From NCBI GenBank assembly GCA_963827235.1, contig CAWHAE010000015.1, forward strand, positions 18,741 through 82,740: a DNA stretch of 64,000 nucleotides. The letters run 5' to 3'. The translations under genes were made by a program, and so were the position numbers. The notes under the pieces were generated by a model. That model worked only from the letters and a program-made list of their open reading frames with translations. It did no database searches and had not been told where the DNA came from. Shown here in pieces: positions 7,319 to 52,296 of the stretch. This stretch comes from an uncultured bacterium. Lineage in GTDB: Bacteria > Chloroflexota > UBA5177 > JANWHV01. How positions within the stretch are numbered: position 1 is the stretch's first letter; each line of letters starts with the position of its first letter.

Positions 7319-7466
7319 GCGCTGGCGCGAGACCTGTCCGTCGCGAGCGCGTTGGGCGGCCGCCGGGGCTCAACGGCCGCTTTCGCCTGCGTCTCAAACC
7401 GGGTCGAGTAGAGGTCGTTCCCTACTCTATGAGCGGTGTTCCGGCGCACAATGAACCGGACGCGTC

Positions 7467-21400: not shown

Positions 21401-21946
21401 CAATGCCGCGCGGTAGCCTTCGTAGCGCTCGAGCGGATCCTCCTGCTCGAGCCAGCCCATGAAGGCAATGCGCCGGTGGCCGTGGGCCAGCAGATGGCGG
21501 ACCGCGGTGGCCGCACCTCCGCGGTTATCGGGCACGACGGACGGAAACAGGGGGACGGGATTGTGGGCGCTCACGGTGACGATCGGCTTGCCCCCGGCTA
21601 CCAGGGCCTGCAGCCCTTCCTCCGTCAGCGAATCCGCGATCACGATGAAGCCATCCATGTGATCCTGGGCGATCGGCAGCAAGGGGGCCGGGTTCATCCG
21701 GTCATAGGCCCACGGCTCGGCTTGCTGAACTGCAACCACTCCCGTGCCGCGCCGGGTAGCAACGGCGTCGATGCCGGCCATGACGTCGCCGTAGTAGAAC
21801 CCGCCCACGAGCGAGGACAGCACGCCGATGGTCCGGCGGCGCGGATGAGCAGGCTGAGCCAAATTCCCACTTGTCGATACGGCACCCATGAGGCGATGAG
21901 TTCCTTTCGACCGTCCGCGGACGCTTGCCGGCGGGACCTCTCTCAC
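18416..21946 (-). CDS. Cytosolic LacI-type sugar-binding (Peripla_BP) domain / PAS / GGDEF / EAL signalling protein
   Basis: N-terminus resembles the LacI/PurR ligand-binding core without an HTH (IGVLSS..., IAFMGW, ATDANAIGALEVL, IIGFDD). It is followed by ~300 aa of unknown sequence, PAS, RLGGDEFAI, and EALLRWHHP...DDFGTGFSSL. Start could be Met20 (21889). Confidence 0.85.
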   Translation of the reverse strand: MREVPPASVRGRSKGTHRLMGAVSTSGNLAQPAHPRRRTIGVLSSLVGGFYYGDVMAGIDAVATRRGTGVVAVQQAEPWAYDRMNPAPLLPIAQDHMDGFIVIADSLTEEGLQALVAGGKPIVTVSAHNPVPLFPSVVPDNRGGAATAVRHLLAHGHRRIAFMGWLEQEDPLERYEGYRAALLGAGISPDSELFFAASDCIEEGGRVAATAMLAAGMPCTAILAATDANAIGALEVLQKAGCRVPDDMAIIGFDDIDLAQYSTPPLTSVRQTFSALGVAAAEQLLALLAGESASGGVVLVPTTFVCRRSCGCAGDGSMARDRLQGMPRTDWPAWLADQLAAQLLWPRHPDRLTSAEQLWPGVGAIAEAFDGALRGAGPLDTARLDEAWRQGCTATASTDTLHSLLLTIEQAGEARLEQGDIADEGAPDRLAAFLEQSRLSVLRSAMFAGTRARRTHETTMHRAYDVSVALARSSGSTGDLEWARLAALRRCCLALWREGTRGGERRLEIRAVLGDDGAAAAAVGKRVAVQAFPPAEFLEACVERSMPQTVSVFPLGTREKQWGYLAVVFPAGGQFREAHDSLRQWLAQLTVVLEREALGLLADQQRQAAQQREQYFRALVEHATDLMLIVGAEETVTYASPSHEALLGISAQRLLGTHLAAWLHPDDAEHLTAALAGAGRYGGSFVVGEVRMQHADGSWRILEVKANDRSSDPAIRGIILNSRDITERKQIEEALQHQAMHDVLTGMPNRALFGDRIEQALRVARREQTSLAMCLLDLDRFKEVNDAFGHGFGDLVLKVVAERLRAAVRAPDTIARLGGDEFAIILPDANEQTAVDIAARIGRALQKPIEIEGHCPTMAASIGIALYPLHGDDAATLVAHADVAMYAAKHAGSGHALYDIVLDEHNPDYLALPQEFMHALNTGGLHLYYQPLIDLGTKQVATVEALLRWHHPRHGFIPPARFLPLAERIGAGIPLTRWVLDTAVRQCAEWRRKGLGLRVAVNISARLLQSPELATMVFAALREHGVPPYCLTLEIVENALMADLEHTLDVLTTLSAAGVHIAIDDFGTGFSSLAFLKQLPVDEIKIDRSFVSTMAPGRRDEALVHSIIDLSHSLGLAVVAEGIEDEITLGRLAELGCDIGQGFHMSHPVPAAELERWVTTAPWQGSVSGPIDEMGL

Positions 21947-25431: not shown

Positions 25432-26372
25432 TGGATCTTCTCGGTGGAGATGCCCTTGCTCAGTGCCAGCCTGGTGGCCTGGAGCTCGGCAAGCATCCAC
25501 CGCTGGTAGGTCTGGGACGGGGGCTCGGTCTCGTAAACGCCGACCACGGCGATATGGTGGGAGCGTGCCAGCGCGAGCAGCTTGACGGTGATCGGCGCCA
25601 CGGCTTGCTGATTGTAGAAGAAGACCTTGACCTCGTTCTTGGTGAAGAGGTTGATCTCGGTCTGCGCGTCCTGCGGCGCCGGGTCGTTGCCTTGCATGAT
25701 CGCCAGAGCAAACGAGCTGGGCGTCAAGATCTTCAGTCCGAGCGCCAGCGCTTCGTAGCTGAAGACGGGCTCGGTGATGGCGACCGGCGTGCCGGCGTAC
25801 TGCTTTCTCACGGCCGCGATGCCGTCGATCCAGGGCTTGAGCGAGGCGTCGAAGGCACGCAGGTTGGCGGCGAAGGTGGCGGCACCGGCACGATCTTGCC
25901 TGGTCAGCTCGGCGGCTATCAGCGTGGCGACGCGCGGCATGGTCGCCGGATCGTACCAAATATGCGGATTGTCGCCGGCCTTGTACCCGAGCCTGTCGCC
26001 GGCGTCGAGCACGACACGGCCCGCCTTCGGCGAGGCATTCTCCAGCTTGACCATGAACGAGTCGTAGCCGAGGCCGTTCTGCACGATCAGCGTCGCCCTG
26101 GCTACCGCGGCGGCATCGGTGGTGTTGGACTCGTAGGCATGGGGGTCGACATTCGGGTCGCTCAGCATGCTGAACACCGCGACGTGCGCGCCGCCGATTT
26201 GCTTTATCACGTCTCCATAAACGTTGGTCGAGGCGACCGCCTGCACGATCGTGCCGGCAGCACGCGCCGACGGCGCCCGCGGCACCGCTGCGCCGGCGCA
26301 GAGGACCGCTAGAGCCAGGAATCGTAGGACGCGGCGGCGTGCGACGGCATGATTCGGCGATATCAGATGCAT
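25428..26372 (-). CDS. Metal ABC transporter substrate-binding protein (ZnuA/TroA-like)
   Basis: Signal peptide plus cluster-9 SBP pattern (DPHAYE, NGLGYD, DNPHIWYDP, ITEPVFSY). Confidence 0.85.
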   Translation of the reverse strand: MHLISPNHAVARRRVLRFLALAVLCAGAAVPRAPSARAAGTIVQAVASTNVYGDVIKQIGGAHVAVFSMLSDPNVDPHAYESNTTDAAAVARATLIVQNGLGYDSFMVKLENASPKAGRVVLDAGDRLGYKAGDNPHIWYDPATMPRVATLIAAELTRQDRAGAATFAANLRAFDASLKPWIDGIAAVRKQYAGTPVAITEPVFSYEALALGLKILTPSSFALAIMQGNDPAPQDAQTEINLFTKNEVKVFFYNQQAVAPITVKLLALARSHHIAVVGVYETEPPSQTYQRWMLAELQATRLALSKGISTEKIQ

Positions 26373-26385
26373 ACAAGCTCTTCAG

Positions 26386-26416
26386 TGATAATCGTTCTCA
26401 TCGACAACCATTATCA
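26386..26416 (-). promoter_or_regulatory. Two adjacent Fur/Zur-box-like palindromes upstream of the metal ABC operon
   Basis: Minus-strand reading is TGATAATGGTTGTCG-A-TGAGAACGATTATCA, 14-44 nt upstream of the ATG at 26372. It fits the TGAnAAnnnTTnTCA pattern. AT-rich in a GC-rich background. Confidence 0.5.
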
Positions 26417-26479
26417 TAGTGGCCTGGCCGGCAGCCGTCAAGGAGGAGCGCCGCCCCATCCTTCGGAAGCGGGCCCTGG

Positions 26480-26530
26480 TTTACGCGGTGTTTATACGCT
26501 GCCGGCTTCCTGTTTACGCGCTCGTTTATG
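26480..26530 (+). promoter_or_regulatory. Candidate KdpE binding sites (direct-repeat half-sites) upstream of kdp
   Basis: TTTACG-cggtg-TTTATA (26480..26496) and TTTACG-cgctcg-TTTATG (26513..26530). The E. coli KdpE site is TTTATA-N5-TTTACA. A TAGAGT -10-like hexamer lies at 26540..26545. Confidence 0.5.
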
Positions 26531-26667
26531 CCTCGCCCGTAGAGTGTGTTCTGGATGGATGAGGCGAGGGACCCGCCCGGCGAGCCCCTCAACGTCGCTC
26601 GTGGTAATTCCGCGTGCGCAAGGTGCCGCGCGAATCGCCGGAGCGACGGGGAAATGCGGAGGTAACG

Positions 26668-26769
26668 GTGGCATTCGACCTCTGGCTGATGATTGTGACG
26701 GTCCTGTTCTTCCTGGCGACCGTCGTGTTCGCGATTGGCTGCGACCGACTGATGGGGACGAAGCGATGA
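26668..26769 (+). CDS. Unannotated 33-aa hydrophobic peptide, translationally coupled to kdpF
   Basis: GTG start 5 nt after GGAGG (26658..26662). Encodes (M)AFDLWLMIVTVLFFLATVVFAIGCDRLMGTKR. The stop TGA overlaps the kdpF ATG (ATGA at 26766). High GC3. Too short for the ORF track. Confidence 0.4.
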   Translation: MAFDLWLMIVTVLFFLATVVFAIGCDRLMGTKR

Positions 26770-26852
26770 TCCAGAACATTCTGCTGTCTATCGTCTCGCT
26801 GCTCGTGCTCGTGTATCTCTTTGTTGCCTTGATCAGGCCGGAGGTGTTCTGA
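26766..26852 (+). CDS. kdpF: K+-transporting ATPase subunit F
   Basis: 28-aa MIQNILLSIVSLLVLVYLFVALIRPEVF. Its stop overlaps the kdpA ATG (TGATG). Confidence 0.8.
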   Translation: MIQNILLSIVSLLVLVYLFVALIRPEVF

Positions 26853-28606
26853 TGCCTGATTGGTTGACCGGCAACGCCGTGATGCAGTGGGCGCTCTACA
26901 GCGTTATCCTGCTGCTCACGGCGAAGCCCGTCGGCACGCACATGTACCGCGTGTTCACCGGTGGGCGGACCTTTTTGCACCGCCTGGTGCGGCCCGTGGA
27001 AGCCGGGATCTACCGGATGGTGGGGGTCGACGAGCAGGAGGAGATGACCTGGTTCGGCTATCTCCTGGCCTCGTTGTTCTTCAGCGTCGTCGGCCTGATC
27101 CTGACCTACATCATCGAGCGCACGCAACAGTGGCACGGCAGCTTCTTCAATCCGCAGGGCTTCCCCAACGTGCCCTCGCTCCTGGCCTGGAACACCGCCG
27201 CCAGCTTCACCACCAACACCAACTGGCAGAACTACGGCGGCGAGACCACCATGAGCTACCTCACGCAGATGACCGGCCTGGCCATGCACAACTTCTTCTC
27301 GGCTGCAACCGGCATCGTGTGGGCGGTGGCCCTGGTGCGTGGCCTGGCGCGGCGCTCGGCAGGGGCAATCGGGTCGTTCTGGGTCGATCTGGTGCGCTGC
27401 TTGCTCTATATCCTGCTGCCGATCTGTATCTTCTACGGCCTCTTCCTGGTGTGGCAGGGCGCGCCGGAGAACTTCAGCGCCTACACCGTGGTACACACGC
27501 TCGAGGGCGCCAAGCAGGTCATTGCCCAGGGACCAGTCGCCTCACAGGAAGCGATCAAGATGCTGGGCACCAACGGCGGCGGCTTCATGAACGCCAACTC
27601 GGCACATCCCTTCGAGAATCCCACGCCGCTCTCCAACTTCGTCGAGATCCTCTCCATTTTCCTGATCGGCTCCGGTCTGGTCTACATGTTCGGCAAGTGG
27701 GTGGGGAACACCAAGCAGGGCTGGTCCATCTGGGCCGCCATGTTCGTCCTGTTCTCCATCGGCTTCTTCACCGCGGTGGTAGCCGAGCAGAAGGGCGATT
27801 CGCTGATCGCGGGCGCCGCCCACGTGATGACCGCGGCGACCAGCAGCCCCTACCAGCCCGGCGGCAACATGGAGGGGAAAGAGGTGCGCTTCGGCATCGT
27901 CGACTCCGCCCTCTTCGCCACCATCACCACCGATGCCTCATGTGGGGCCATCAATTCCTGGCACGAGAGCTTCACGCCGATCGGCGGTCTGGTACCGCTG
28001 ACCAACATCGCCACGGGCGAAGTGATCTTCGGCGGCGTGGGGGCAGGCATGTACGGCATGCTGATGTACGCCATTCTGGCGGTGTTCATCGCCGGGCTGA
28101 TGGTGGGCCGCACGCCCGAATACCTGGGCAAGAAGATCGAAGCCTTCGAGATCAAGATGGCCAGCATCGCCTTGTTGATTTCACCCGCGAACATCCTGTT
28201 GTTCGCAGGGGCGGCTGTGCTGGGAGCCTGGGGCACGGCGTCGATCTTGAATGCCGGCCCGCATGGGCTCTCGGAGATCCTCTACATCTACACGTCGAGC
28301 AACGGCAACAACGGCTCGGCCTTTGCCGGCCTGACGACGAATACCAACTGGTACAACTGGAGCGGCGGCTTCGCCATGCTGATCGGGCGCTTCGTCTTCG
28401 TGACGCCGCTGATTGCCATTGCCGGCTCCATGGCCAGGAAGAAGACAGTGCCGGCGTCGCTGGGCACGTTCCCCACGGACGGCCCCACCTTCAGCGTGCT
28501 GCTGGTCTTCGTGATCATCATCGTGGCGGCGCTGACCTACTTCCCGGCCTACTGTCTCGGCCCGATCCTCGAGCAGCTGCTGCTCAACGCCCATCACGTG
28601 TTCTGA
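26852..28606 (+). CDS. kdpA: K+-transporting ATPase subunit A
   Basis: 584-aa polytopic protein with typical KdpA sequence ([25 protein letters not shown]). Confidence 0.95.
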
Positions 28607-28622
28607 GAAGGAGTCGAATTCG

Positions 28623-30719
28623 ATGGCTATTCAGGCTCCGCGAATGGAGCAACAGGCGCCGCGACGGCCGCTGGGCGACGAGCGGCGGCGCAGCAAATCG
28701 CTGGCCCTGTTCGACCCGAACATCACGCGGAAGGCAGCCGGCGAGGCCGTCCGGAAGCTCGATCCTCGCGTGCAGCTGCGCAACCCGGTGATGTTCGTGG
28801 TGCTGGTCGGTGCGGTCGTCACGTCCGTGGAGTTCGTGCGATCACTCGTGACCAGCGGGTTGGCCGGCGACCGCGGCTTCACGCTGCAGGTCGCCGTCTG
28901 GCTGTGGTTCACCGTGCTCTTTGCCAATTTCGCCGAGGCCATGGCAGAGAGCCGCGGCAAGGCGCAGGCAGATACGCTGCGCAGGACGCGCACCGACGCC
29001 CAGGCTAAGCGTCTCGACAGCCGCGGCGCCGTGCAGATCGTCTCTGCCACGGAGCTGCGCAGGGGCGACCTGGTGCTGGTCGAGGCCGGCGATCTGATTC
29101 CCGGCGACGGCGATGTGATCGACGGCGTTGCCTCGGTCAACGAGGCGGCGATCACCGGCGAGAGCGCGCCGGTGATCAAGGAACCCGGCACCGACATCCG
29201 TTCGTCGGTGACGGGCGGCACCACGATCCTCAGCGACAGCTTGAAGATCCGCATCACCGCCAACCCGGGCGAGACGTTCATCGATCGCATGATCGCCCTC
29301 GTAGAAGGCGCCAACCGGCAGAAGACCCCCAACGAGATCGCGCTGAACATTCTGCTGGCTTCGCTGACCATCATCTTCTTGCTGGCCGTCTACACCCTGC
29401 AGCCGTTCGCCGTCTACTCCGGCAGCCCCGTGGACGTGACCACCCTGGTGGCCCTCCTGGTCTGCCTCATCCCCACCACGATCGGCGGCCTGCTCAGCGC
29501 GATCGGCATTGCCGGCATGGATCGCCTGGTCCAGTTCAACGTGCTGGCCATGAGCGGCCGGGCGGTGGAGGCGGCCGGCGACGTCGACACGCTGCTGCTG
29601 GACAAGACGGGCACTATCACTTTCGGCAACCGCATGGCCTTCGAGTTCGTGCCCGTCAAGGGCCACACTGAGGCCGAGCTGATCGACGCCGCCCTCCGCT
29701 CGAGCCTGGCCGACGACACTCCCGAGGGGAAGAGCATCGTCACCCTGGCCACCGAGCGCGGTGCCGTCGTGGACAGGGCCTTCCTGGATGGCGCCGAGCT
29801 GGTGCCCTTCACGGCGCAGACGCGCGTGAGCGGCGTGCGCCGCAACGGGCACCAGGTCATGAAGGGTGCCGTGGACGCCATCGTGGCTGCCACGCCCAAT
29901 CCGCCGCCCGATCTGCAGACCATCGCGGACCGCATTGCGAGCGAGGGCGGAACGCCGCTGGCGGTGGCGCGCGACGGCGAGGCGCTGGGCGTCGTGTACC
30001 TGAAAGACACCGTGAAGCCGGGCATGCGCGATCGCTTCGACGAGCTGCGCCGCATGGGCATTCGCACCATCATGGTCACCGGAGACAACAAGCTCACCGC
30101 CGCCACGATCGCCAGAGAGGCCGGCGTCGACGACTTCCAGGCAGAGAGCAAGCCGGAGGACAAGATCGCGCTGATCCGGCGCGAGCAGGCCGACGGCAAG
30201 CTGGTCGCCATGACCGGCGACGGCACCAACGATGCGCCGGCCCTGGCCCAGGCGGACGTCGGCGTGGCCATGAACTCCGGCACCCAGGCGGCCAAAGAGG
30301 CCGGCAACATGGTGGATCTGGACAGCAACCCCACCAAGCTGATCGAGATCGTGGCCATCGGCAAGCAGCTGTTGATCACGCGCGGGGCGCTGACCACCTT
30401 CTCTATCGCCAACGACGTGGCCAAGTACTTCGCCATTCTGCCGGCCATGTTCAGCAGGCAGTTCCCACAGCTCGGCGCGCTCAACGTCATGCACCTGTCC
30501 ACGCCGCACTCGGCGATCACGGCCGCCGTGATCTTCAACGCGTTGATCATCGTGGCGCTGATACCGCTGGCCCTGCGCGGCGTGAAGTATCGCCCGCTGG
30601 GCGCGGCCCAGATCCTGCGCCGCAACCTGTTGATCTACGGCCTTGGCGGGATCATCATTCCCTTCCCCGGCATCAAGATCTGCGATCTGATTCTGACCGG
30701 CCTGCACCTGACCGTGTGA
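28623..30719 (+). CDS. kdpB: K+-transporting P-type ATPase subunit B
   Basis: DKTGTIT phosphorylation motif, [15 protein letters not shown]. 698 aa. Confidence 0.95.
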
Positions 30720-30734
30720 TAAGGAGACAAGCGT

Positions 30735-31376
30735 ATGGAATCAGTAACGACCCTTGCTGAGCGCGAGCGTGGCACGATACGCCCGTCACGAACGTCATTG
30801 GGCAATACACTGCGCATCAGCGTGGCGATGACGATTGTGTTGACCATTCTCGTGGGCGTGATCTACCCGTTCTTCATGACCGGCGCGGCCCAGGTGCTGT
30901 TCCACGACCAGGCCAACGGCTCCCTGATCAAGGGCCCGAACGGCCAGATCGTGGGATCGTCCTTGATCGGCCAGAACTTCACCAAGCCGCAGTACTTCCA
31001 CCCGCGGCTCTCGGCCGCGGGCACCGGCTACGATGCCAGCAACTCCGCCGGCACCAACCTGGGCCCGACCAGCGCCACGCTGTTGAAGAACACAATCGCC
31101 CAGGCCAACGCCATCCGCAAGGAAGACGGGCTGCCGCCCAACTATCCCCTGCCGTCCGATGCGGTATCAACGTCGGCCAGCGGGCTCGACCCCGACATCA
31201 GCCCGGCCTACGCCGCGCTGCAGGTGCCGCGCGTGGCCAGAGTGCGTGGCCTGACGCAGTCCCAGGTGCAGGGCCTGGTGCACAAGTACACCAGCGATCG
31301 CACGCTCGGCGTGCTCGGGGAGCCGCGCGTCAACGTCCTGGAGCTGAACGTCGCCCTGGATCAGCTGGAGAAATAG
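30735..31376 (+). CDS. kdpC: K+-transporting ATPase subunit C
   Basis: Single N-terminal TM and typical KdpC motifs (GSSLIGQ.F, F.PR.SA, SGLDP.ISP..A..Q). Confidence 0.9.
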   Translation: MESVTTLAERERGTIRPSRTSLGNTLRISVAMTIVLTILVGVIYPFFMTGAAQVLFHDQANGSLIKGPNGQIVGSSLIGQNFTKPQYFHPRLSAAGTGYDASNSAGTNLGPTSATLLKNTIAQANAIRKEDGLPPNYPLPSDAVSTSASGLDPDISPAYAALQVPRVARVRGLTQSQVQGLVHKYTSDRTLGVLGEPRVNVLELNVALDQLEK

Positions 31377-43592: not shown

Positions 43593-44741
43593 TCAGCTGT
43601 GCCGGGTCGGGGTGCTCGTGGGCACGGGCTTGCCGCCGTAAAGCGGCGAGGCGACGACGGTACGGTATGCCTTGAGCGCAGAGCTGGACGTGTAGACGCG
43701 CCAATCCCCCTTGGCCTTGGACTCGTACCACATCACGGCGCGGATACGCGGCAACAGGCTCGGCAGCTCGTGCAGGAAGCCCTGGAGAATCCAGTTGGCC
43801 TTGCTGCCGCCCTGCTCCACGGATCCGGTCTCGGCGATCATCAGCGGACGCCGTGTGATGGCAGTCACCTCGGCATAGGAAGCGCCGAACACCTGGTACA
43901 GCGTCTGCCACGTGTGGCCGTACGTGGTGCCCCAGTTGTAGCCGTCGAGCGCTACCCAGTCGACGTAGGCGTCGCCCGGGTAGTCGAGAATGTCCGGCGT
44001 GGAGCCGGGGTAGCTGACGTTCACGCACCATACCCACATCGCGTTGTGCACGCCGAGGCTCGTGAAGATGTCGTGCACGTGGCGCCATGCGGCGACGAAG
44101 TCGGCGGGAGTGTTGCCGTCGGGGTTGCCGGGTGTGGTGTTCCAGCTATACCAGTCGCCGTTCATCTCATGTGCGAACCGCAGGTAAAAGGGATGTCCCC
44201 ACGCCTTTGCATCGCCGGCGAAGCGGCGAATATAGGAATCGAATGCGCCGTGTGTGATGGCGCTGAGCTTGTACTTCGGCTGTGAGAGCCCGAGGCTGTA
44301 GTCGTTCGGCTGCCAGGTCCACATCGGAGTACTGCCGCGCGCGCGGATGCTGTTCATCACCCGCGGATCGAAGTTCGCATAGTGCACCCAGTCGCTGCCG
44401 GTGTTGACGATCGCCGGCATGCGACCCACCAGGTGGGCATACCAATCCATGAGTCCAGGATCGCTGGTGACATAGTCCCCGTGCTCGTGGATGTACGCGC
44501 CGAGGGCGATTGGTCCTGCCGGCGCCGTAGGTTGCGCGGCAGCCTTCGTCTGCACCGGGGAGGTCACCACGATCCCGCTGGAGGACGATGGTCCACCGAA
44601 CCTGGTGATCGCGAAGACCGGCAATGCCACGGCAACGAGAAGCAAACCGATCAGGGAGTTCTCCCACCAGGGTCGCTTGATCCGGGCAGGGATGGCGGCG
44701 CGAGCGTTCACAGCAGTAGTGCGGAGCACACGGGTACACAT
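43593..44741 (-). CDS. Glycoside hydrolase family 26-like (beta-mannanase type), membrane-anchored or exported
   Basis: N-terminal TM. Motifs LRFAHEMNGDWYSW (acid/base region), YVDWVALDGYNWG, and PLMIAETGS (nucleophile region). Confidence 0.8.
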   Translation of the reverse strand: MCTRVLRTTAVNARAAIPARIKRPWWENSLIGLLLVAVALPVFAITRFGGPSSSSGIVVTSPVQTKAAAQPTAPAGPIALGAYIHEHGDYVTSDPGLMDWYAHLVGRMPAIVNTGSDWVHYANFDPRVMNSIRARGSTPMWTWQPNDYSLGLSQPKYKLSAITHGAFDSYIRRFAGDAKAWGHPFYLRFAHEMNGDWYSWNTTPGNPDGNTPADFVAAWRHVHDIFTSLGVHNAMWVWCVNVSYPGSTPDILDYPGDAYVDWVALDGYNWGTTYGHTWQTLYQVFGASYAEVTAITRRPLMIAETGSVEQGGSKANWILQGFLHELPSLLPRIRAVMWYESKAKGDWRVYTSSSALKAYRTVVASPLYGGKPVPTSTPTRHS

Positions 44742-45286
44742 CCAGTCGGTTGAGCGATGAGCGTCCTGTTCCAGTGCTTCTATCCTACCTATACCTTGAG
44801 ACTTTCGCTAGTCCATCCGCCGGCCACTGCACGCTATCGAGGGTTGCTGGAATGGCGTGCGCCCGGGGTCCGGAATTGCCGTCTTGCCGTCGTCCTGCGC
44901 ATCGGCTATCCGTCTTGGCTAGCCCGATTGGTCGTGCAATCGTCCATTCTCTATCGTGACTTGCCTTCATCGATCATCATTGTTCTCCCAGCTTTGCCGG
45001 CCGGAATGTCTGCGATCTCTACAAGGATCACCTGTCCATAGTCCTGAACACACCTGAATGGGCTGGCCCATTGGGTTGACGTGTCCGTACCGTTGGTCAT
45101 AAACATATACATCCGTTCCTGCTATCCATACTGGCCATCCAGAATTGGTGATTGGTTTCTTCCTAAAACTCGTCCACAGTACGCATGTGGCTTTACGGCA
45201 GTATGTTCGACGGGTTGCTTGCCCGCCTGCGTGCGGCGGTCTTGCCAAGCCACACCGGCCAGACAGTTTTGGGAGGCAGATTCGAA

Positions 45287-47227
45287 ATGCTATTCATGAA
45301 GTCTCACGGTGGCGCAAGGCTGGCGCTCAGCGCGGCCCTGGTCGCGGGAAGCATAATCGTCGCGACGCTGCCGCGAGCTCTTGCAGCTCCCGCCAGTTAC
45401 AGCGCGACGGCGGCCATGGCAGGCGCGACCGCGGGACAGCTTGCCGCCAGCTCGCCGCTCAGCTTATCCTCCACGACTGTATCGGCCGGTGGTACGATCA
45501 ACGCGTCATTCACCTTGCAGAACCAGGGCAGTGCGTCGGTCGTGGTCACCGGTGCTGCCTTTGCCACGCGCACGCCCAGCGGCGGCAACGCCGATTTCGG
45601 ATGGACATGGAGCACCACGACCCTGGCACCCGGCCAGACCCTACCCATGCAGGGCAGCCGGACGTTCAGCGCCTCGGACGCCCTGGGCATGTGGACGATC
45701 TTCGCCAGCTATCGCACCAGCGATAACGTGTGGCACGACCTGGCGCCGACCCTCTCGCTCACGGTGAGCGCACCGGCTCCGGCCGCTACGGCGACCAAGC
45801 CTGCGCCCACCGCCACGCAGCCGGCGCCCACGGCTACACTGCCCACCGTGGCTCAGCTCTCCGCCAGCTCGCCGCTCAGCTTGTCGTCGACGACGGTATG
45901 CGCCGGCAGTACGATCAACGCGTCGGTCACCCTGCAGAACCTGGGCAGCGCCTCGGTCGTGGTCACCGGTGCCGCCTTTGCCACGCGCACGCCCAGCGGC
46001 GGCAACGCCGATTTCGGATGGACATGGAGCACCACGACCCTGGCACCCGGCCAGACCCTACCCATGCAGGGCAGCCGGACGTTCAGCGCCTCGGACGCCC
46101 TGGGCGTGTGGACGATCTTCGCCAGCTATCGCACCAGCGATAACGTGTGGCACGACCTGGCACCGACCCTCTCGCTCACGGTGAGCGCACCGGCTCCGGC
46201 CGCTACGGCGACCAAGCCTGCGCCCACCGCCACGCAACCTGCCCCCACGGCGACCAAGCCGGCGCCCACGGCGACCAAGCCGGCGGCGACTGCGACGCAG
46301 CCTGCGCCTACGGCCACCAAGCCGGCGCCCACGGCTACAGCCACGACAGTACCTGCGTCTGGTAGCACCATCGCGCTCGGCGCCACGATTCACGACAACG
46401 GCACCTACGTCGGGCCAAGCACCGGCCTCCTCGAGTGGTATACCAGCACTGTCGGCCGTATGCCCGCCATGGTGAATGCCGGGGGCGCCGCGTCGCTGAC
46501 CGCGGCGTTCGACCCCAGCCTCGGCAACTACCTGCTGAGCAAGGGCACGACGTTCATGTGGACCATGATGCCGTCGACGAGCGACGCATCCGTCACCAGC
46601 GGCACCTACGACAGCTACTTCAACACCTTCGCCAAGGCCGTCAAGTCCTGGGGCCACACGCTCTACCTGCGCTTCGCTCACGAGGCGAACGGGAACTGGT
46701 ATCCGTACGGCACAGAGGGCAACCCCAGTGGCGATACCCCGGCGAACTACGTGGCCATGTGGAAGCACGTGCACGACATCTTCACCAACGACGGCGCCAC
46801 GAATGTCAAGTGGGTGTGGTGCATGAATGTGACCAGCAGCGGTATGCCCTCGTACTCCTCGCTCTACCCCGGAGACAACTACGTGGATTGGGTAGCGCTG
46901 GACGGCTATAACTGGGGCACCGACAATGGCAACGCCTGGCAGTCATTCTCCAGCGTGTTCAGCACCTCGTACCAGCAGATCACGGCGCTGACGAGCAAGC
47001 CGCTGATGATCGCCGAGACCGGATCGGCGGAAGACGGCGGCAGCAAGGCGAGCTGGATCACGCAGGGCCTGCTGACCACCATGCCGCAGTCGTTCCCACG
47101 CATCAAGGCGTTGCTGTGGTTCGACTGGAACACCGGACCCGACTGGCGCGTGAACTCTTCCGCTTCGTCGCTGACGGCCTTCCAGTCCGTGGTTGCCTCG
47201 CCGCTGTACAGCGGGTCCATGTCCTGA
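45287..47227 (+). CDS. GH26-like hydrolase with two duplicated N-terminal beta-sandwich (CARDB-like) modules and PT linkers
   Basis: Track ORF 45185..47227. Met35 (45287) follows GGGAGG. Signal peptide present. Two 139-aa repeat modules precede the GH26 core (LRFAHEANGNWYPY, YVDWVALDGYNWG, PLMIAETGS). Confidence 0.8.
   Translation: MLFMKSHGGARLALSAALVAGSIIVATLPRALAAPASYSATAAMAGATAGQLAASSPLSLSSTTVSAGGTINASFTLQNQGSASVVVTGAAFATRTPSGGNADFGWTWSTTTLAPGQTLPMQGSRTFSASDALGMWTIFASYRTSDNVWHDLAPTLSLTVSAPAPAATATKPAPTATQPAPTATLPTVAQLSASSPLSLSSTTVCAGSTINASVTLQNLGSASVVVTGAAFATRTPSGGNADFGWTWSTTTLAPGQTLPMQGSRTFSASDALGVWTIFASYRTSDNVWHDLAPTLSLTVSAPAPAATATKPAPTATQPAPTATKPAPTATKPAATATQPAPTATKPAPTATATTVPASGSTIALGATIHDNGTYVGPSTGLLEWYTSTVGRMPAMVNAGGAASLTAAFDPSLGNYLLSKGTTFMWTMMPSTSDASVTSGTYDSYFNTFAKAVKSWGHTLYLRFAHEANGNWYPYGTEGNPSGDTPANYVAMWKHVHDIFTNDGATNVKWVWCMNVTSSGMPSYSSLYPGDNYVDWVALDGYNWGTDNGNAWQSFSSVFSTSYQQITALTSKPLMIAETGSAEDGGSKASWITQGLLTTMPQSFPRIKALLWFDWNTGPDWRVNSSASSLTAFQSVVASPLYSGSMS
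45437..46255 (+). repeat. Tandem 417-bp direct duplication inside the GH26 gene
   Basis: Copy 1 is 45437..45853; copy 2 is 45854..~46255. They are nearly identical over ~300 bp in the 3' two-thirds and diverge in the first ~100 bp. Each copy encodes a 139-aa module plus an ATKPAPTATQPAPTAT linker. Confidence 0.85.
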
Positions 47228-47415: not shown

Positions 47416-48510
47416 CTACCGCGACGGAGCGTAGCGGTACACGCCGTACTGCGTTGCGGCGAGGAGGGTGGGCGTGGCATCCGCCGATGCGCCGGCGAGT
47501 GCCAGGGCAAGAATCGTGTTCTGCGCGCCGATCAAGCCTCGGCCAAGCTGCTGCCAGGCGGAGGTTCCCTGCTTGACGTAGATGCCGTATCCCATGGTCC
47601 CGGCGTAGAGCAGCGGCGGCCCGTGGCCGGCAAGCGCCACCAGAGGCATTGCGTGCCGCTCAGGCAGTCCCTGGCTGATGTCGTGCCAGCTGCCCTCTGC
47701 AGGCCGTTCCCACACGCCGCCGCCCATGGTGGTCAGGATCACGGCAGGCGGCTGTGTGTCAAGAGCAAGGAGGGTCTCGGTCGGCAGCTCCGCGGGCAGT
47801 CCGCCGGCTGCCGCGTGCCAGGTGCTCCCGTCGTCGTCGCTGGCCATTACCGGGGGCGTGACGCCGAACACGCTGGCCATGACGTGACTACCGGTTGCCG
47901 GAAACCAGACGATAGAAGAGATGGAGGCGTCATCCGTGCGCGCGGTACGCTTCCACTGCCATCCGTGCGCGCCGCGGGCGCCGCGATAGAGCGCGCCGGA
48001 CGTCCCTGCCAGGATCACCGGCGGCGCGTGCGCGACGGCGAGGCTGAATATCGGGGTGCCTCCGAGGGGGGAGCTCGCCGCTTGCCACGCAACGCTGCCG
48101 AGGATGCCGCCGGCGGCGTGGACCACGCCGTCCTCGTCGCCGGCATAGAGTGTCGTGCCGCCGGTGTCGACGGCCAGCGCAGTGATTACTCGGCCGCGCA
48201 TGCCGGCGCGCTCCCAGGAAGTACCCGCGTCGAGGGATCGCCAGGCGCCGTCGTCGGTGCCGGCGAACAGCACGGCGGGGCGCGCGGGGTCTGCCAGCAG
48301 GGCGTTGGTCTGCTCCCGCAGTCCGGTAGCCGTCCACAAGCCGCCGGTCCGGGGTCCCGTCCACACCGCGGGCGTAGCCGGCCCCGCGCTTCGGTCGGCT
48401 ACGCCCAGGACGGAGGCGAGGACGGTAATGAGCAGGAGCACGATGACTCCCAGCCGCTTGCCCCGGATGCCGTTCCACCCGGGCCCACCGTCTCCGTCAC
48501 GTATCTTCAT
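47416..48510 (-). CDS. Membrane-anchored BNR/Asp-box beta-propeller protein (Ycf48-like)
   Basis: N-terminal TM (LGVIVLLLITVLASVLGV). Asp-boxes SLDAGTSW and SDDDGSTW. Starts 16 nt downstream of the cupredoxin stop. Confidence 0.65.
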   Translation of the reverse strand: MKIRDGDGGPGWNGIRGKRLGVIVLLLITVLASVLGVADRSAGPATPAVWTGPRTGGLWTATGLREQTNALLADPARPAVLFAGTDDGAWRSLDAGTSWERAGMRGRVITALAVDTGGTTLYAGDEDGVVHAAGGILGSVAWQAASSPLGGTPIFSLAVAHAPPVILAGTSGALYRGARGAHGWQWKRTARTDDASISSIVWFPATGSHVMASVFGVTPPVMASDDDGSTWHAAAGGLPAELPTETLLALDTQPPAVILTTMGGGVWERPAEGSWHDISQGLPERHAMPLVALAGHGPPLLYAGTMGYGIYVKQGTSAWQQLGRGLIGAQNTILALALAGASADATPTLLAATQYGVYRYAPSR

Positions 48511-48526
48511 CTGCAGCTTGAGGAGC

Positions 48527-49591
48527 TCAGCTCGCGTACGTCACGGAGGCCGTCTTCACGGTGGCCGAGACCACGAACTTGTCCCACATGCCGGCCAGTG
48601 CATGCCCGGGGACGCCGCAAATCAGCATGTACGTGCCGGCCTTGTTGGCCACGAACGTGAATGTAGTCGGACCGCTCGTTCTCGGCGGGCGATTGCCGGC
48701 CGGCGGCCGGCCGGAGGACGAGCCGCCGGCGCCGGGCCGGAAGCCCGAGAAGGACGAGCGGGCGCCCGCGAAAGCCGGCGTGACGCTGTGGCTCGGCAAC
48801 GCCCGCATATTGGGGATTACCAGCACGTCGTGCGGCGTGGTCGAGTCATTCTTGAACGTGGCGACCACCTTGGAGCCGAGTGGCACGGTCACGGTCATGC
48901 GGCCGTAGGCGCCGCCGTCGAAGTTGAAGCCGGCATTGGCATTGTTCCAATCCGCCACCAGGGTGAGGTCGACGACATTGCCCTTGGTCGTCACCCAGGT
49001 AGGCGTCTTCGAAGGCGGAGCGGCAGGCGCGCCGGTGGTGGCGAGGTCGGAGCCGTTGAAGGCGACGCTCGCGGTCTTGGCTGAAGACGATACGATCAGC
49101 GTGTCCCACATGCCGGCCAGCGCGTGGCCGGAAATACCGCATACGATCATGTAGGTGCCTGCTGTGCTTGCCACAAATGAGAACGCCTGGGCCGTGCTCG
49201 GCCGCGGCGCGCTGCCGGGGCGGAACTGAGGCAGTGGCGAGGCGGCGCCGGCAAATGCCGGCTTCGTGGCACCGCCGGGAAGTGCCTTCTGGAAGGGAAT
49301 GATTACCGCGTCGTGCAGCGCCCCGGAGCCGGCGTTCTTGAACGTAGCATCCACCGTGTCGCCGAGCGGTATGGTCACCACCATCTGCCCGTGCGCGGCG
49401 CCGTTGAAGTTGAATCCGGCGTTGACGTTGTTCCAGCCCGCGATCAGCGTGAGGTGGACGACCTTTCCCGTCGTGGTCACCCAGGTGGGTGCCTGGGCAG
49501 CCGCCCGCGCCCCGGCCGGGCCGACCAGGCCGGCAAGCACGGCTCCCGCGATCAGACCGCCCTGTATGCAGTGTGTTCTGGACCTTGGCAT
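48527..49591 (-). CDS. Exported tandem (two-domain) sulfocyanin/rusticyanin-type blue copper protein
   Basis: Track ORF 48527..49675; Met29 (49591) chosen, followed by a signal peptide. Each half carries GFNF(N/D)G, a His ligand (LHD / PHD) and C-x4-H-x4-M (CGISGHALAGM, CGVPGHALAGM). Confidence 0.8.
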   Translation of the reverse strand: MPRSRTHCIQGGLIAGAVLAGLVGPAGARAAAQAPTWVTTTGKVVHLTLIAGWNNVNAGFNFNGAAHGQMVVTIPLGDTVDATFKNAGSGALHDAVIIPFQKALPGGATKPAFAGAASPLPQFRPGSAPRPSTAQAFSFVASTAGTYMIVCGISGHALAGMWDTLIVSSSAKTASVAFNGSDLATTGAPAAPPSKTPTWVTTKGNVVDLTLVADWNNANAGFNFDGGAYGRMTVTVPLGSKVVATFKNDSTTPHDVLVIPNMRALPSHSVTPAFAGARSSFSGFRPGAGGSSSGRPPAGNRPPRTSGPTTFTFVANKAGTYMLICGVPGHALAGMWDKFVVSATVKTASVTYAS

Positions 49592-49706
49592 GCTACTGAA
49601 AACCTCCACTCCGGCGGCGAACACACCGCGCCGTTCGGGCAACATCGCCCGACCGTCACGCCGCCCACCGCCCACTCCACTCCTGTCACGGCCGCGCGAC
49701 CATGAC

Positions 49707-49724
49707 TACTACACAAGCGTAGTA
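49707..49724. promoter_or_regulatory. Palindrome TACTAC-N6-GTAGTA upstream of the cupredoxin operon (candidate BlaI-type operator)
   Basis: TACTACacaagcGTAGTA, 116-133 nt upstream of the start at 49591. Same core as the site at 50724..50741. Confidence 0.5.
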
Positions 49725-49913
49725 AATCGTCCGGTAACGATCAATGGCTCCGGCCGAAGGGGCCGTACCCGAGATCCGATCCAGCCCCTCGGTCCGCCGA
49801 TCCGCGGACCGAGGCCGTCGTGCCCGCCTCCCGACGTGCCCGGCATGGCTTCCATCCTCGCAAGACAACAACCCGCTGCATCACACTGTGCAGGGGTTCC
49901 GGCCGGACGCCGG

Positions 49914-50675
49914 CTACCGTGACGCGCCGGCGATACCGCCGGCCAGCAGCGAATACGACTGCTCACCCGAGTCGGCATAGCGAATGATGCCGTTCTTGTC
50001 GAGCACGTAGATCGTGGGGTAGCTGCTCACGCCGTATGTGTTGACCGTTGAGAAATTGGGATCGATCAGTGTCGGGTGCTTGACGCCGAAGTTCTGGATA
50101 AACCAGCTGACGTCGGACTTGGACACGCCGCTGAGGTCGGTGCCGCCGCTCGTGTCGTAGTTGCGGCCGTAGGGACTGGAGAGCACGGCCAGCGTCTGCA
50201 GGCCCTTGGGGCCATAGTTCTTGTCGATCTGGTTCAGGATGCCGGACTCCGCCTGGCAGTACGGGCACCAAACGGCGAAGAACTCGAGCAGCACGGGCCG
50301 GCCCTTCAGCGACGAGAGGCTGTAGCGTTTGCCGTCTATGGTCGAGAGCGTGAAGCCCGGCGCCGCGGTCCCGGTGCTCAGCAGCTGCCCGCTAGGGTTG
50401 TAGGCACTCGCGCTCACCAGGTCACCTGCCGTGCTCGTGGTGCTCCTGGTGGCCAGGATAGCGGCTGCGATGCCGGCGGCGATGAGCACCAGCAGGCCGG
50501 ACGAGAGCAGCACGAAGCGCTTGCGGGCACGCGCCGCCGACGTCCGCCTCATATACCGGGAGCGCACCGGCTTGACGGGGGCTTGCAACGCCGATCGCCG
50601 GGTGGACAGGGTAGCCACACCGTCCTGCGTGCTGGTCGTTCGATCGCTTCTGGCGAGGCTCGATCGCTTGCTCAT
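49914..50675 (-). CDS. Membrane-anchored TlpA/ResA-like thiol:disulfide oxidoreductase
   Basis: Track ORF 49914..50927; Met85 (50675) chosen. One TM, thioredoxin fold with FFAVWCPYCQ and SSYPTIYVLD. Confidence 0.8.
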   Translation of the reverse strand: MSKRSSLARSDRTTSTQDGVATLSTRRSALQAPVKPVRSRYMRRTSAARARKRFVLLSSGLLVLIAAGIAAAILATRSTTSTAGDLVSASAYNPSGQLLSTGTAAPGFTLSTIDGKRYSLSSLKGRPVLLEFFAVWCPYCQAESGILNQIDKNYGPKGLQTLAVLSSPYGRNYDTSGGTDLSGVSKSDVSWFIQNFGVKHPTLIDPNFSTVNTYGVSSYPTIYVLDKNGIIRYADSGEQSYSLLAGGIAGASR

Positions 50676-50720
50676 CTTGTCCTTCTCTGTCCGATAGCAC
50701 CCAACCGGCATTTGGTGAAT

Positions 50721-50745
50721 TTGTACTACGCAAATGTAGTATAAT
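50721..50745. promoter_or_regulatory. Palindrome TTGTACTAC-N6-GTAGTATAA overlapping a TATAAT hexamer in the tlpA/blaI divergent spacer
   Basis: Core TACTACgcaaatGTAGTA at 50724..50741, with 8/9 complementary 9-nt arms. TATAAT at 50740..50745. Confidence 0.55.
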
Positions 50746-50882
50746 TGACCCACAGAACGCGTCAAGACACGATGCCGGCCGGGCCGGTGGTTGTTTCTCT
50801 TCCTCTTCGTTCGTACGATCGAGGGGAACCAGGAATAGGCGGCCCCGCGTGGGCGGGCCTGCAGCGCACGAAGGAATCGCGA

Positions 50883-51317
50883 ATGGTGCGTCGCGGACGG
50901 CGGGATCGGCGTGACCTCGCCGTGCATGGCGAACAGAAGTATCTGGGCGAGCTGCAGGCACAGATCATGGAGATCGCGTGGTCTCGCGCCGCCGTGACCG
51001 TGCGCGAGGTCATGGATGCCCTGGGCGCCGGCCGCGATCTGGCCTATACGACGGTCATGACCGTGATGTCGCGACTGGCGGACCAGAGTATCCTCAGCCG
51101 CGAGCGCGTAGGCAAGACCTATGTCTACCGACCGGCCTGCTCGCGCGATGAGTTTCGAGCCGGCATCGCGGGCACCATCGTCAACGACTTGATCGTCGAC
51201 TTCGGCGATCTCGCTCTATCGCAATTCGTCGACGCGCTCGAGCGTACGGATCCCGGTCGCCTGGAGCGCCTGCGCGTGTTCTTCAATGCCGCCGAGCAGA
51301 CAGATGACCGTCCGTAG
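50883..51317 (+). CDS. BlaI/MecI/CopY-family transcriptional repressor
   Basis: Track ORF 50745..51317; Met47 (50883) gives 144 aa. Winged helix LGELQAQIMEIAW...TVREV...AYTTVMTVMSRL..K..L.RE..G..YVY. No C-terminal CxC Cu motif. Confidence 0.8.
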   Translation: MVRRGRRDRRDLAVHGEQKYLGELQAQIMEIAWSRAAVTVREVMDALGAGRDLAYTTVMTVMSRLADQSILSRERVGKTYVYRPACSRDEFRAGIAGTIVNDLIVDFGDLALSQFVDALERTDPGRLERLRVFFNAAEQTDDRP

Positions 51318-52296
51318 GCCGTTTGCCGGTCTTCTGGCCGTGGCTGCTCTCGGCACGGCCCTTGCCGCCGCTCTGCTGCTGGTTGCTTTCCCTCCGCCCC
51401 CGCTCGGGGAGGCACTCAGACGCTGCTGCGAGTCCGGCAACTTCTGCTCCAGTCTGTTGCGATTCGGGCATCAGGTTGGTACGCCGCTCTTTCTCGCCCT
51501 GCTCCCCTGGTGCCTGCTCCGGGGACTGGGCCATGGCGCGCACCAGTGGTGGCTGACCCACCGCGCCGTCGGGCGCCTGCGAGCGCGCGGCACTTGCGCG
51601 GTGACAGGCGAGGTGCAGGCGCTCTCCTCACGGCTCGGATTGCACCAGCGGCTGACCATCGTCGACATCGACGCGCCGCTCGCCTTCTGCCACGGCCTCT
51701 GGCGACCGTGTGTGTGGTTGTCGACGGGCATGCTGAATCTGCTTTCCATCCCGGAAGCAGCCGCGGTGCTGCGCCACGAGCAGGCGCACCTGCGTCTCCG
51801 GCACCCGTTGCAGCTCCTGGTAGCGCGCTCCCTGGCCGCCGCTTTCCCGTTCCTGCCCGTGCTGCGCGAGCTGACCGAGGCGGTCGTGCGCGCGCAAGAG
51901 CTGGCCGCGGATCGCGCGGTGATCGGTGCCGGCGAGCGCTATGCACTGGGACGTGCGCTGCTGGCTCTGGCTGCCGCGCCGAGAGCGACCGTGAGCGTTC
52001 CGGCCCCGAGCATGGTCGGTGCCCTGGATGCCCGGCTCGATCAGCTTACCGGCGTGAGCTCCGCGCCGCTGCAGCTCTCACGGCGCGCGCTGGTTCTTAC
52101 CTGGCTGGCATTTGCGTTCGGCGTGCTACTGCTTCGCATGAGCAGCATGGCGCTGCCTCCGCAACACACGCTGCTCGGCCTGTTCGAGCTGCCGCCGGTG
52201 CGGCTCGCCGTATCCTGGCCCTGCCTGGCTGCCGCGTGTCTGCTGGCCGGCGCGCTGCAGGCGGCATCCCTGGCGATGGCGCGCGACCCATCCTAA
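51304..52296 (+). CDS. M56-family (BlaR1-type) membrane metallopeptidase without a penicillin-binding sensor domain
   Basis: Track ORF 51286..52296. Met7 (51304) overlaps the blaI stop by 14 nt. HEQAH zinc motif in AAVLRHEQAHLRLRHP, several TMs, Cys-rich loop RRCCESGNFCSS. Confidence 0.75.
   Translation: MTVRRPFAGLLAVAALGTALAAALLLVAFPPPPLGEALRRCCESGNFCSSLLRFGHQVGTPLFLALLPWCLLRGLGHGAHQWWLTHRAVGRLRARGTCAVTGEVQALSSRLGLHQRLTIVDIDAPLAFCHGLWRPCVWLSTGMLNLLSIPEAAAVLRHEQAHLRLRHPLQLLVARSLAAAFPFLPVLRELTEAVVRAQELAADRAVIGAGERYALGRALLALAAAPRATVSVPAPSMVGALDARLDQLTGVSSAPLQLSRRALVLTWLAFAFGVLLLRMSSMALPPQHTLLGLFELPPVRLAVSWPCLAAACLLAGALQAASLAMARDPS

Follow-up and report, generated by a model that had tools for sequence, protein, structure and literature searches.

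Genes and candidate operators of the locus

We analysed a 64-kb stretch of DNA from an uncultured soil Chloroflexota bacterium (contig CAWHAE010000015.1; the whole stretch is called the window) and, within it, the region from 47.4 to 52.3 kb, where the open reading frame (ORF) listing and the sequence showed five genes, three on the minus strand and two on the plus strand (Table 1). The plus-strand genes encode a BlaI homologue and an M56 peptidase, and the minus-strand genes encode a redoxin, a double cupredoxin and a propeller-like protein. An earlier interpretation made from the letters alone (the sequence-only reading) had described these genes as a proteolytic switch clustered with copper and thiol proteins; all five were found at the coordinates it had assigned to them, and the motifs it had quoted were correct too. 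The blaI and M56 genes overlap by 14 nt, 16 nt separate the cupredoxin stop from the propeller start, and the spacer from the redoxin gene to the cupredoxin gene is 322 nt long. The locus appears to be made up of three transcription units, each with a candidate operator over its -10 element, and the repressor very probably controls the redoxin gene, the cupredoxin operon and its own operon through two such operators.

Table 1. Coordinates of the genes and of the candidate regulatory elements in the window.
Feature	Position	Strand	Remarks
Propeller-like / Asp-box (BNR-like) repeat protein	47416-48510	-	364 aa; ORF; second gene of cupredoxin operon
Double cupredoxin	ORF 48527-49675 (GTG 49675); likely gene 48527-49591	-	ATG 49591 after GGAGG; 354 aa
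Redoxin	ORF 49914-50927; likely gene 49914-50675	-	ATG 50675 after GAAGGA; 253 aa; WCPYC
BlaI homologue	50883-51317	+	144 aa; divergent from redoxin gene
M56 peptidase	51304-52296	+	330 aa; identical to database protein P0001
Operator 1, TACTACACAAGCGTAGTA	49707-49724	.	exact match; upstream of cupredoxin operon
Operator 2, TACTACGCAAATGTAGTA	50724-50741	.	exact match; divergent redoxin/blaI spacer
Predicted cupredoxin-operon promoter, TTGATC-17 nt-TACGCT	49716-49744	-	read from sequence; -10 inside operator 1
Promoter-like site of redoxin gene, TTGACG-16-TATACT	50738-50765	-	-10 overlaps operator 2
TATAAT, candidate -10 for blaI-M56	50740-50745	+	fused to operator 2 right arm (GTAGTATAAT); read from sequence
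G+C-rich hairpin, candidate terminator between redoxin gene and cupredoxin operon	49787-49814	-	inverted repeat, 14-nt arms, 93% complementary

The sequence-only reading had reported the same palindrome in the spacer between the redoxin and blaI genes and upstream of the cupredoxin operon. Our searches showed that this 18-bp palindrome, TACTAC-N6-GTAGTA, is present in two exact copies in the 64 kb, at these two places, and that both are intergenic. When up to two mismatches were allowed, three matches were found in the window against 0.18 expected, and none of 100 shuffled sequences reached three. The third match (position 20540, two mismatches) was rejected as an operator because it is located inside the coding region of a 1176-aa GGDEF-EAL ORF and is probably due to chance.

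The predicted promoter of the cupredoxin operon was missed by a strict consensus promoter scan; its geometry is kept in two related loci described below, as TTGATC-17-TACGCT in L001 and TTGACC-17-TACTGT in L003. The promoter-like site of the redoxin gene is the sole sigma-70-like match between positions 47000 and 52800, with 10 of 12 positions in agreement. No good -35 hexamer was found for the blaI-M56 promoter, and the junction of its -10 with the operator arm, GTAGTATAAT, is also present in L008, L012 and L013, with near variants in L005 (TATATT) and L003 (TATGAT).

The results of our hidden Markov model (HMM) searches in Pfam showed that the repressor matches Penicillinase_R (PF03965) with 86.9 bits (cutoff 22.6; E = 1.6e-24), and its nearest solved structure is that of the Mycobacterium tuberculosis BlaI (2G9W, E = 1.6e-14); we classify it as a winged-helix repressor of the BlaI/MecI/CopY family. 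In an alignment of 11 sequences, among them BlaI, MecI and the PetR of Synechocystis, its F115 did not vary and occupied the position of the scissile-site Phe of both BlaI and PetR; this Phe belongs to the C-terminal dimerisation helix (N101-F102 in the BlaI of Staphylococcus aureus). The best NCBIfam match of the repressor is CopY/TcrY (TIGR02698), a Firmicutes group of the same winged-helix family with copper-responsive regulation, and this match favours an explanation in which the repressor senses copper directly, as CopY does, the M56 protein being a housekeeping or accessory protease. However, the score of 44.8 bits is far under the cutoff of 121.95, and, whereas CopY senses Cu(I) without the help of a protease, by means of a CxCx4CxC motif at its C-terminus (PMC11672702), the repressor of the window has neither this C-terminal motif nor a CxC there and contains a single cysteine, C86. 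Membership of the CopY/TcrY subfamily was rejected on these two grounds. Direct sensing is so improbable as to be effectively excluded, since the translational coupling of the blaI and M56 genes and the conserved scissile Phe favour proteolytic control.

The M56 protein matches Peptidase_M56 (PF05569) with 44.2 bits (cutoff 31), has HEQAH at residues 158-162 and RRCCESGNFCSS at residues 39-50, and ends at residue 330 after its fourth transmembrane (TM) helix, with no transpeptidase or penicillin-binding domain detected by Pfam. The sequence-only reading was therefore right that the sensor domain is missing, and mistaken in treating this as unusual, since most BlaIR-like systems are without one (PMC13492132). 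We assign the protein to the sensor-domain-less M56 membrane zinc proteases of the BlaR1/PetP type; its membership of the canonical beta-lactam sensors BlaR1/MecR1 was rejected, as the C-terminal penicillin-binding (class D beta-lactamase-like) domain is absent. Comparison with the BlaI-BlaR1 and MecI-MecR1 systems of S. aureus and Bacillus licheniformis showed the same two protein families, a repressor that is cut at an N-F bond of which the Phe is kept here, and divergent target and regulator genes sharing an operator, while the protease lacks the penicillin-binding domain, the gene order is reversed and the output is neither a beta-lactamase nor PBP2a. A classical beta-lactam-responsive resistance system, which has family membership in its favour, is effectively excluded by the small size of the protease (330 aa, without a transpeptidase domain) and by the fact that no beta-lactamase or penicillin-binding protein gene is present at this locus or at any related locus.

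A model of the M56 protein made with AlphaFold (AF2; mean predicted local distance difference test score, pLDDT, 76.6; predicted TM-score, pTM, 0.73) contained four TM helices, at residues 6-28, ~56-78 (within a long helix), 260-281 and 305-327, with the protease core modelled confidently between TM2 and TM3. Its best fold matches in the PDB were the cryo-electron microscopy structures of the S. aureus BlaR1 (E = 2e-4, probability 1.0, TM-score 0.37-0.40). The TM1-TM2 loop (residues 29-55) is predicted to be outside the cell and the catalytic domain to be cytoplasmic, on account of Arg4-Arg5 at the N-terminus and because the loop and the catalytic domain are on opposite membrane faces in the model. 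The sequence-only reading had called this loop Cys-rich. Alignment of 22 orthologues showed that C41 and C48 are invariant, together with the gluzincin set H158, E159, H162 and E199, and that C129 is near-invariant, while C42, adjacent to the first of the pair, is not conserved. The two invariant cysteines form a C-x5/6-C motif directly after the first hydrophobic helix.

The cupredoxin matches SoxE (PF06525) with 119.9 bits over four stretches, which correspond to two domains, each with a type-1 copper ligand set H...C-x4-H-x4-M. Three orthologues keep both sets (H93/C151/H156/M161 and H254/C325/H330/M335) unchanged, in agreement with the two complete type-1 sites that had been read from the sequence. 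There is a hydrophobic signal-like segment at residues 8-26, and the mature protein has exactly two cysteines, C151 and C325, which are both ligands; it is predicted to be an exported tandem type-1 copper protein. Among proteins of solved structure, it comes closest to rusticyanin (1e-6) and auracyanin A (2e-4). The archaeal sulfocyanin equivalog label (TIGR03094) was rejected and "sulfocyanin/rusticyanin-like" preferred, because the score of 124.7 bits, reached only through the sum of the two domains, is below the cutoff of 168.4. There are about 30 tandem-domain homologues.

The redoxin matches AhpC-TSA (E = 1.3e-17) and Redoxin (E = 1.2e-16) in Pfam and has one TM segment (residues 52-80), N-terminal to the thioredoxin domain. 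It thus combines the thioredoxin fold, the CxxC motif (WCPYC) and the membrane anchor of the TlpA/ResA type, and we describe it as a membrane-anchored thiol-disulfide oxidoreductase of the ResA/TlpA/CcmG type. The name TlpA given to it by the sequence-only reading was too specific, as the protein scores 30.3 bits with the NCBIfam model of TlpA (NF047696, cutoff 230) and 74.8 bits with that of ResA (NF002854, cutoff 170), and its nearest solved structure is ResA (4nmu, E = 1.1e-18). It is comparable to the reductases of the TlpA-ScoI-CoxB pathway of Bradyrhizobium and of the ResA/CcdA pathway of Bacillus, being a membrane-anchored extracytoplasmic WCxxC reductase to which related loci add SCO1 and CcdA, but it differs from them in remaining below both cutoffs. 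We know of no description of these two pathways being under the control of a BlaI/M56 pair.

The propeller-like protein has two canonical S-x-D-x-G-x-x-W boxes (SLDAGTSW at residue 92 and SDDDGSTW at residue 224) and one N-terminal hydrophobic segment (residues 14-42), which would anchor it in the membrane. It gave a sub-threshold score with NCBIfam F510_1955 (NF045728; 48.6 bits, cutoff 175), no significant Pfam BNR match and no sequence match in the PDB, and its single-sequence AF2 model was unusable (pLDDT 37.5). It was the weak member of the family assignments made before, of which Penicillinase_R, Peptidase_M56, the double SoxE and AhpC-TSA/Redoxin were all supported by HMMs. Among the loci compared, an orthologue was found in L001 only, and the protein is best regarded as a lineage-specific addition, shared by the window and its closest relative, which stands outside the conserved circuit of which it had been considered a part.

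Conservation of the proposed wiring and of the Cys-pair loop

We then compared the locus with those of its relatives. The M56 protein has ~27 close relatives, with 41-77% identity, among 5.8 billion clustered proteins, and those that are named come from Chloroflexota metagenome-assembled genomes (MAGs). An exhaustive HMMER scan gave about nine representatives (50% clustering level) above 200 bits (216-479), and a scan of the GTDB species genomes gave three loci only, two of which were already known. The small number of loci in the GTDB species genomes indicates that this M56 clade is rare, and the neighbourhood statistics are therefore based on the seven contexts whose flanks could be used: the window, L001, L003/L004, L005/L006, L008, L013 and L007.

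The results of this comparison showed that six of the seven contexts combine blaI-M56 and the palindrome with a divergent redoxin gene, a divergent cupredoxin gene or both. The M56 identity of the loci sharing this wiring is 44-77% and, L001 excepted, their neighbourhoods are mostly unrelated. All five genes and both operators are present in L001 as in the window (M56 identity 70%), the equivalent of operator 1 being at positions 6436-6453. A divergent tandem cupredoxin gene alone, with the operator upstream, was found in the otherwise unrelated neighbourhood of L003/L004 (52%), and a divergent redoxin gene alone, with the operator, in L005/L006 (51%), L008 (47%) and L013 (52%); orthologues of the redoxin are thus divergent from blaI in L001, L005, L008 and L013. 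The exact palindrome is located in the divergent spacer of every locus bearing a target (L001, L003, L005, L008 and L013) and in the corresponding spacer of L012, a short contig. Two further M56 orthologues are probably encoded on the same contig as a SoxE cupredoxin, as suggested by single contigs of identical length.

The joint conservation of the palindrome and of a target in six of the seven contexts makes the regulatory wiring well supported. The control of the redoxin gene and of the cupredoxin operon by the repressor, as proposed by the sequence-only reading, agrees with the positive outcome of this neighbourhood test and with the exact conservation of the putative operator. The expectation that M56, BlaI, cupredoxin and TlpA would be conserved together was borne out in L001, where all of them are present; elsewhere there is a redoxin or a cupredoxin alone, and in L007 neither. 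As judged from these neighbourhoods, the regulatory link is conserved within the M56 clade, and the regulon is modular, consisting of the redoxin, the cupredoxin or both.

One-mismatch copies of the operator were observed near the blaI start in L005 (5496-5513, TACTAC-N6-GTAGGA) and L008 (4150-4167, TACTAC-N6-GTAGCA). Each is fused to a -10-like hexamer (TAGGAT and TAGCAT, respectively), and there is no clear equivalent in the window; these copies suggest a second auto-regulated promoter.

In this clade, hereafter clade A, the most frequent partner is the redoxin (window, L001, L005, L008 and L013). This argues for an alternative explanation, in which the system would be a copper-independent homeostat of envelope thiols and disulfides: oxidation or reduction of the Cys pair would activate the protease, the ResA/TlpA-like reductase would be the main output and would feed back on the sensor, and the cupredoxin would be a secondary client or an electron sink in some lineages. 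The presence of a nitroreductase-family gene after M56 in L005 (7040-7642, 11 nt past the stop) and in L008 (5657-6259, overlapping the stop) points in the same direction, as does the recurrence of the loop motif, a C-x5-7-C directly after TM1 being found in 19 of the 127 best full-length representatives of the M56 family without a sensor domain. In contrast, the operator, the switch and a cupredoxin are present without a redoxin in L003/L004.

Two wider groups of relatives were informative in this respect. A second M56 clade with a Cys pair (clade B, CAxxPxxC; P0030, P0032, P0033, P0035 and P0042) was found in loci flanked by copper and thiol genes (L080:569-9281; also L081, L017, L019 and L025). 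Its divergent operon comprises genes for an unknown protein of 209 aa, a Redoxin-SCO1 fusion, a Redoxin and a DsbD_TM/CcdA protein, while a MauE-like gene overlaps the M56 stop, being co-transcribed with blaI-M56, and CopZ, CopA and CsoR are encoded directly downstream. Met-rich SoxE/Copper-bind cupredoxin ORFs are located ~2 kb from the clade B blaI-M56 pair at L016:3099-3839 and L018:3108-3914. The regions upstream of the clade B genes contain TAC...GTA-type dyads of variable spacing, from which no single motif could be defined. In a third M56 clade, which has a single Cys in the loop (L078 and L079), blaI-M56 is followed by the gene of a triple-DsbA protein and by cytochrome c maturation genes. 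The CcdA, the Redoxins and the MauE of L080 and the triple DsbA and cytochrome c maturation genes of L078/L079 favour a thiol homeostat; the embedding of clade B among SCO1, CsoR, CopA, CopZ and a Met-rich cupredoxin does not, nor does the single loop Cys of the DsbA/Ccm-linked clade, nor the copper response of the one sensor-less relative controlling a cupredoxin that has been characterised. We consider a copper-independent homeostat rather unlikely on balance, although the copper and the thiol-redox explanations would converge if copper oxidised the Cys pair, and sequence alone does not separate them.

The cupredoxins of L016 and L018 contain a Met/Gly-rich stretch, GGMMGGASGTGMMGTGMMGTM, reminiscent of periplasmic copper-resistance proteins. 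The protein encoded after blaI-M56 at L078:7008-8915 and L079:7043-8929 is ~630 aa long, with three DsbA/Thioredoxin_4 domains, and is followed by CcmE, a dihaem cytochrome c and CcmAB.

A related repressor (BlaI 141 bits) was found in L020 beside an M56 protein without the Cys pair. Two exact copies of TACTAC-N6-GTAGTA are located there downstream of M56 (7017-7034 and 7821-7838), preceding a gene for a cNMP-binding-domain protein (7114-7575) and a gene for an unannotated 192-aa membrane protein (8006-8584). L020 would serve as a single natural control tying the Cys pair to thiol and copper outputs. It also bears on the possibility that the wiring is real and that the signal is of another kind, such as envelope stress, a lipid, a peptide ligand or the state of a partner protein, with the Cys pair forming a structural disulfide and the redoxin and cupredoxin being merely the local regulon. 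The same operator stands before unrelated targets in L020, the signals of most BlaIR-like systems, which lack a sensor domain, are unknown, as for CenIR (PMC13492132), and the loop has low confidence in the M56 model; all three points are in favour of such a signal. Its improbability comes from two separate clades, in which Cys-pair loops recur next to copper genes and genes for thiol oxidoreductases, and from the fact that the pair is missing in the one relative with unrelated targets.

Comparison with PetR/PetP and proposed mechanism

The sequence-only reading knew of no described BlaR1-type system with a blue-copper output; the PetR/PetP system of Synechocystis sp. PCC 6803 is one (Garcia-Canas et al. 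2021, 10.1101/2020.07.31.226407; commentary in PMC7896320). PetR is a BlaI-family repressor and PetP, encoded by an overlapping gene, is a sensor-less M48/M56 protease with four TM helices (10.1101/2020.07.31.226407; PMC7896320). PetR represses plastocyanin, the degradation of PetR needs both PetP and copper, and two conserved methionines of the PetP TM2-TM3 loop (M53 and M58) have been proposed as copper ligands (10.1101/2020.07.31.226407). In the published RNA sequencing data, the PetR regulon consists of four genes only.

For the comparison, PetR was taken from the supplement of the paper and PetP from cyanobacterial loci. The two systems share a repressor and an overlapping sensor-less protease of ~290-330 aa with four TM helices; in both, the repressor is without the CopY Cys motif and keeps the scissile-site Phe, an inverted-repeat operator lies in the core promoter of a type-1 blue-copper carrier gene (the promoter being a predicted one here), and candidate soft-metal ligands are present in a short extracytoplasmic loop before the last TM helix that precedes the protease domain. 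They differ in sequence (the repressors are 33% identical over 79 aa and the proteases 25% over 112 aa), in the operator (GAC-N5-GTC for PetR and TACTAC-N6-GTAGTA here) and in the ligands, a Met pair in PetP and a Cys-x5/6-Cys pair here, both in the same aligned loop. The output here is a tandem sulfocyanin/rusticyanin-like cupredoxin and a membrane-anchored thiol reductase instead of plastocyanin. Within the window, we found no cytochrome gene that bears an activating site, and the host is a non-phototrophic-looking Chloroflexota MAG. Furthermore, it is for PetRP that a dependence on copper was demonstrated by experiment; here copper is a proposed signal.

Orthology to PetRP (Slr0240/Slr0241) was rejected in view of the 25-33% identity and of the other operator and loop ligands, the BlaI of M. 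tuberculosis being about equally close. The M. tuberculosis pair BlaI/BlaR (Rv1846c/Rv1845c) provides the nearest repressor structure, has the same order of genes, blaI then blaR, and its BlaR is also without a sensor domain; it differs in a beta-lactam-responsive regulon centred on blaC, with no known cupredoxin or redoxin targets. Its operator is said to have been described by Sala and colleagues in 2009 as a TAC...GTA-type palindrome. In the literature, no link of BlaI/M56 to TlpA/ResA-type reductases, to SCO1 or to cupredoxins outside cyanobacteria was found, the library searched not being exhaustive, and a review of marine copper signalling leaves the roles of heterotroph BlaR homologues for elucidation (PMC10141476).

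In Synechocystis sp. LKSZ1 and in a Rippkaea-like contig, petR-petP is directly followed by an AhpC-TSA/Redoxin gene (L082:4289-4759 and L083:4307-4810). This adjacency is a possible parallel to the linkage with the redoxin observed here.

A copper switch of the PetR/PetP kind is the explanation that we consider best overall, with a probability of about 0.5. At rest, a dimeric repressor would occupy both operators, operator 2 covering the back-to-back -10 elements of blaI-M56 and of the redoxin gene and operator 1 that of the cupredoxin-propeller operon; with all three -10 elements covered, the three units would be off. Repression by the BlaI homologue is what would be expected from its family. 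The M56 protease would read an extracytoplasmic signal through the Cys-x5/6-Cys pair of its TM1-TM2 loop, copper being bound by both thiolates or oxidising them to a disulfide, and its activated cytoplasmic domain would cut the repressor near Gln114-Phe115. Derepression would allow the electron-carrying blue-copper protein and the thiol reductase to be made, along with more of the switch proteins, and the reductase would keep the cysteines of the exported cuproprotein, and perhaps those of the sensor, reduced for copper insertion. A C151-C325 disulfide in the apo-cupredoxin is speculation.

These parts are not equally firm. The component genes, the palindromes, their overlap with the predicted promoter elements and their joint conservation with the targets come directly from sequence analysis and comparison. 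Proteolytic inactivation of the repressor is likely, from what is known of the family. Copper as the physiological signal has somewhat less than an even chance; it is favoured because the only characterised analogue is copper-dependent, because the output includes an obligate copper protein and because clade B is found among copper-specific genes. The same analogy and gene content suggest that the Cys pair may be the sensor.

Several observations weigh against the copper switch. In L007 (M56 identity 44%), the gene pair is present without a redoxin, a cupredoxin or the palindrome. The M56 gene is called there 96 nt after blaI and encodes a protein without TM1 that starts with MKHCMDDGGVC (5471-6771), and this pair may be a decaying copy with an N-terminally truncated M56. 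A redoxin without any recognisable copper protein is found in three of the six contexts with the link (L005, L008 and L013); given these redoxin-only contexts and the nitroreductase of L005 and L008, a thiol or oxidant signal fits at least as well as copper. The sole unbiased check that started from the cupredoxin was made with P0200, a 56% identical cupredoxin, and showed neither the palindrome nor a blaI/M56 pair in the 10 kb upstream, which indicates that the cupredoxin family is not generally under BlaI/M56 control. Motif scans of the window found no other copper genes, the sole P-type ATPase being KdpB. In the M56 model the pLDDT is below 50 for most of residues 32-55, C41 and C48 included, and the proximity of the two cysteines and the coupling of the loop to the protease are beyond the reach of a loop modelled with such low confidence. 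Finally, the hosts are uncultured MAGs, and the low similarity to PetRP and the different operator lead us to regard the locus as a distant functional analogue of PetRP and not as its orthologue.

PetRP is the only sensor-less pair tied to a metal and has been described so far in cyanobacteria alone. The locus and its relatives would place the logic of repressor, sensor-less protease and blue-copper protein in an unrelated phylum; this is an extension of a single-phylum paradigm and not a new principle. What is new with respect to PetRP is the Chloroflexota host, the Cys-pair loop, the different operator, the tandem sulfocyanin-like output and the thiol reductase in the regulon. The resulting hypothesis, that the TM1-TM2 loop is the sensor, that Cys or Met sets its chemistry and that the reductase feeds back on it, can be tested by mutation. 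It also suggests that soil Chloroflexota express respiratory cupredoxins according to copper availability or to the redox state of the envelope.

A wider and distinctly tentative proposal is that BlaI with a Cys-pair-loop M56 constitutes a widespread and previously unrecognised class of extracytoplasmic copper/thiol sensors in Terrabacteria. Such sensors would govern the machinery of copper centres (TlpA/ResA-type reductases, SCO1, CcdA and cupredoxins), and their cysteines would be clients of the induced reductase, which would make the system a feedback homeostat. If true, this class would be the first chemical answer to what most sensor-less BlaR1 homologues detect.

Neighbouring features

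The hairpin located 3' of the redoxin gene has an RNA folding energy of -32.2 kcal/mol (z = -2.1) and no U-tract; it is a possible, weakly supported terminator of that gene. An Rfam scan of the window found no RNA families, which leaves no riboswitch alternative for the long 5' leaders.

Elsewhere in the window, a complete kdpFABC operon, encoding a potassium-ATPase and not a copper pump, is located at 26349-31376 (+), and the 1176-aa protein encoded at 18416-21946 (-) combines a LacI-type periplasmic-binding-like domain with PAS, GGDEF and EAL domains. In L008, a small ABM-monooxygenase-like ORF is present at 6271-6597.

The five-gene cluster is flanked by two genes for GH26-like glycoside hydrolases (45185-47227 on the plus strand and 43593-44741 on the minus strand), and this synteny is kept in L001. 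The 680-aa GH26-like protein has an N-terminal module of ~130 aa that is internally duplicated, with long Pro/Thr/Ala-rich linkers as separators (APTATKPAPTAT...).

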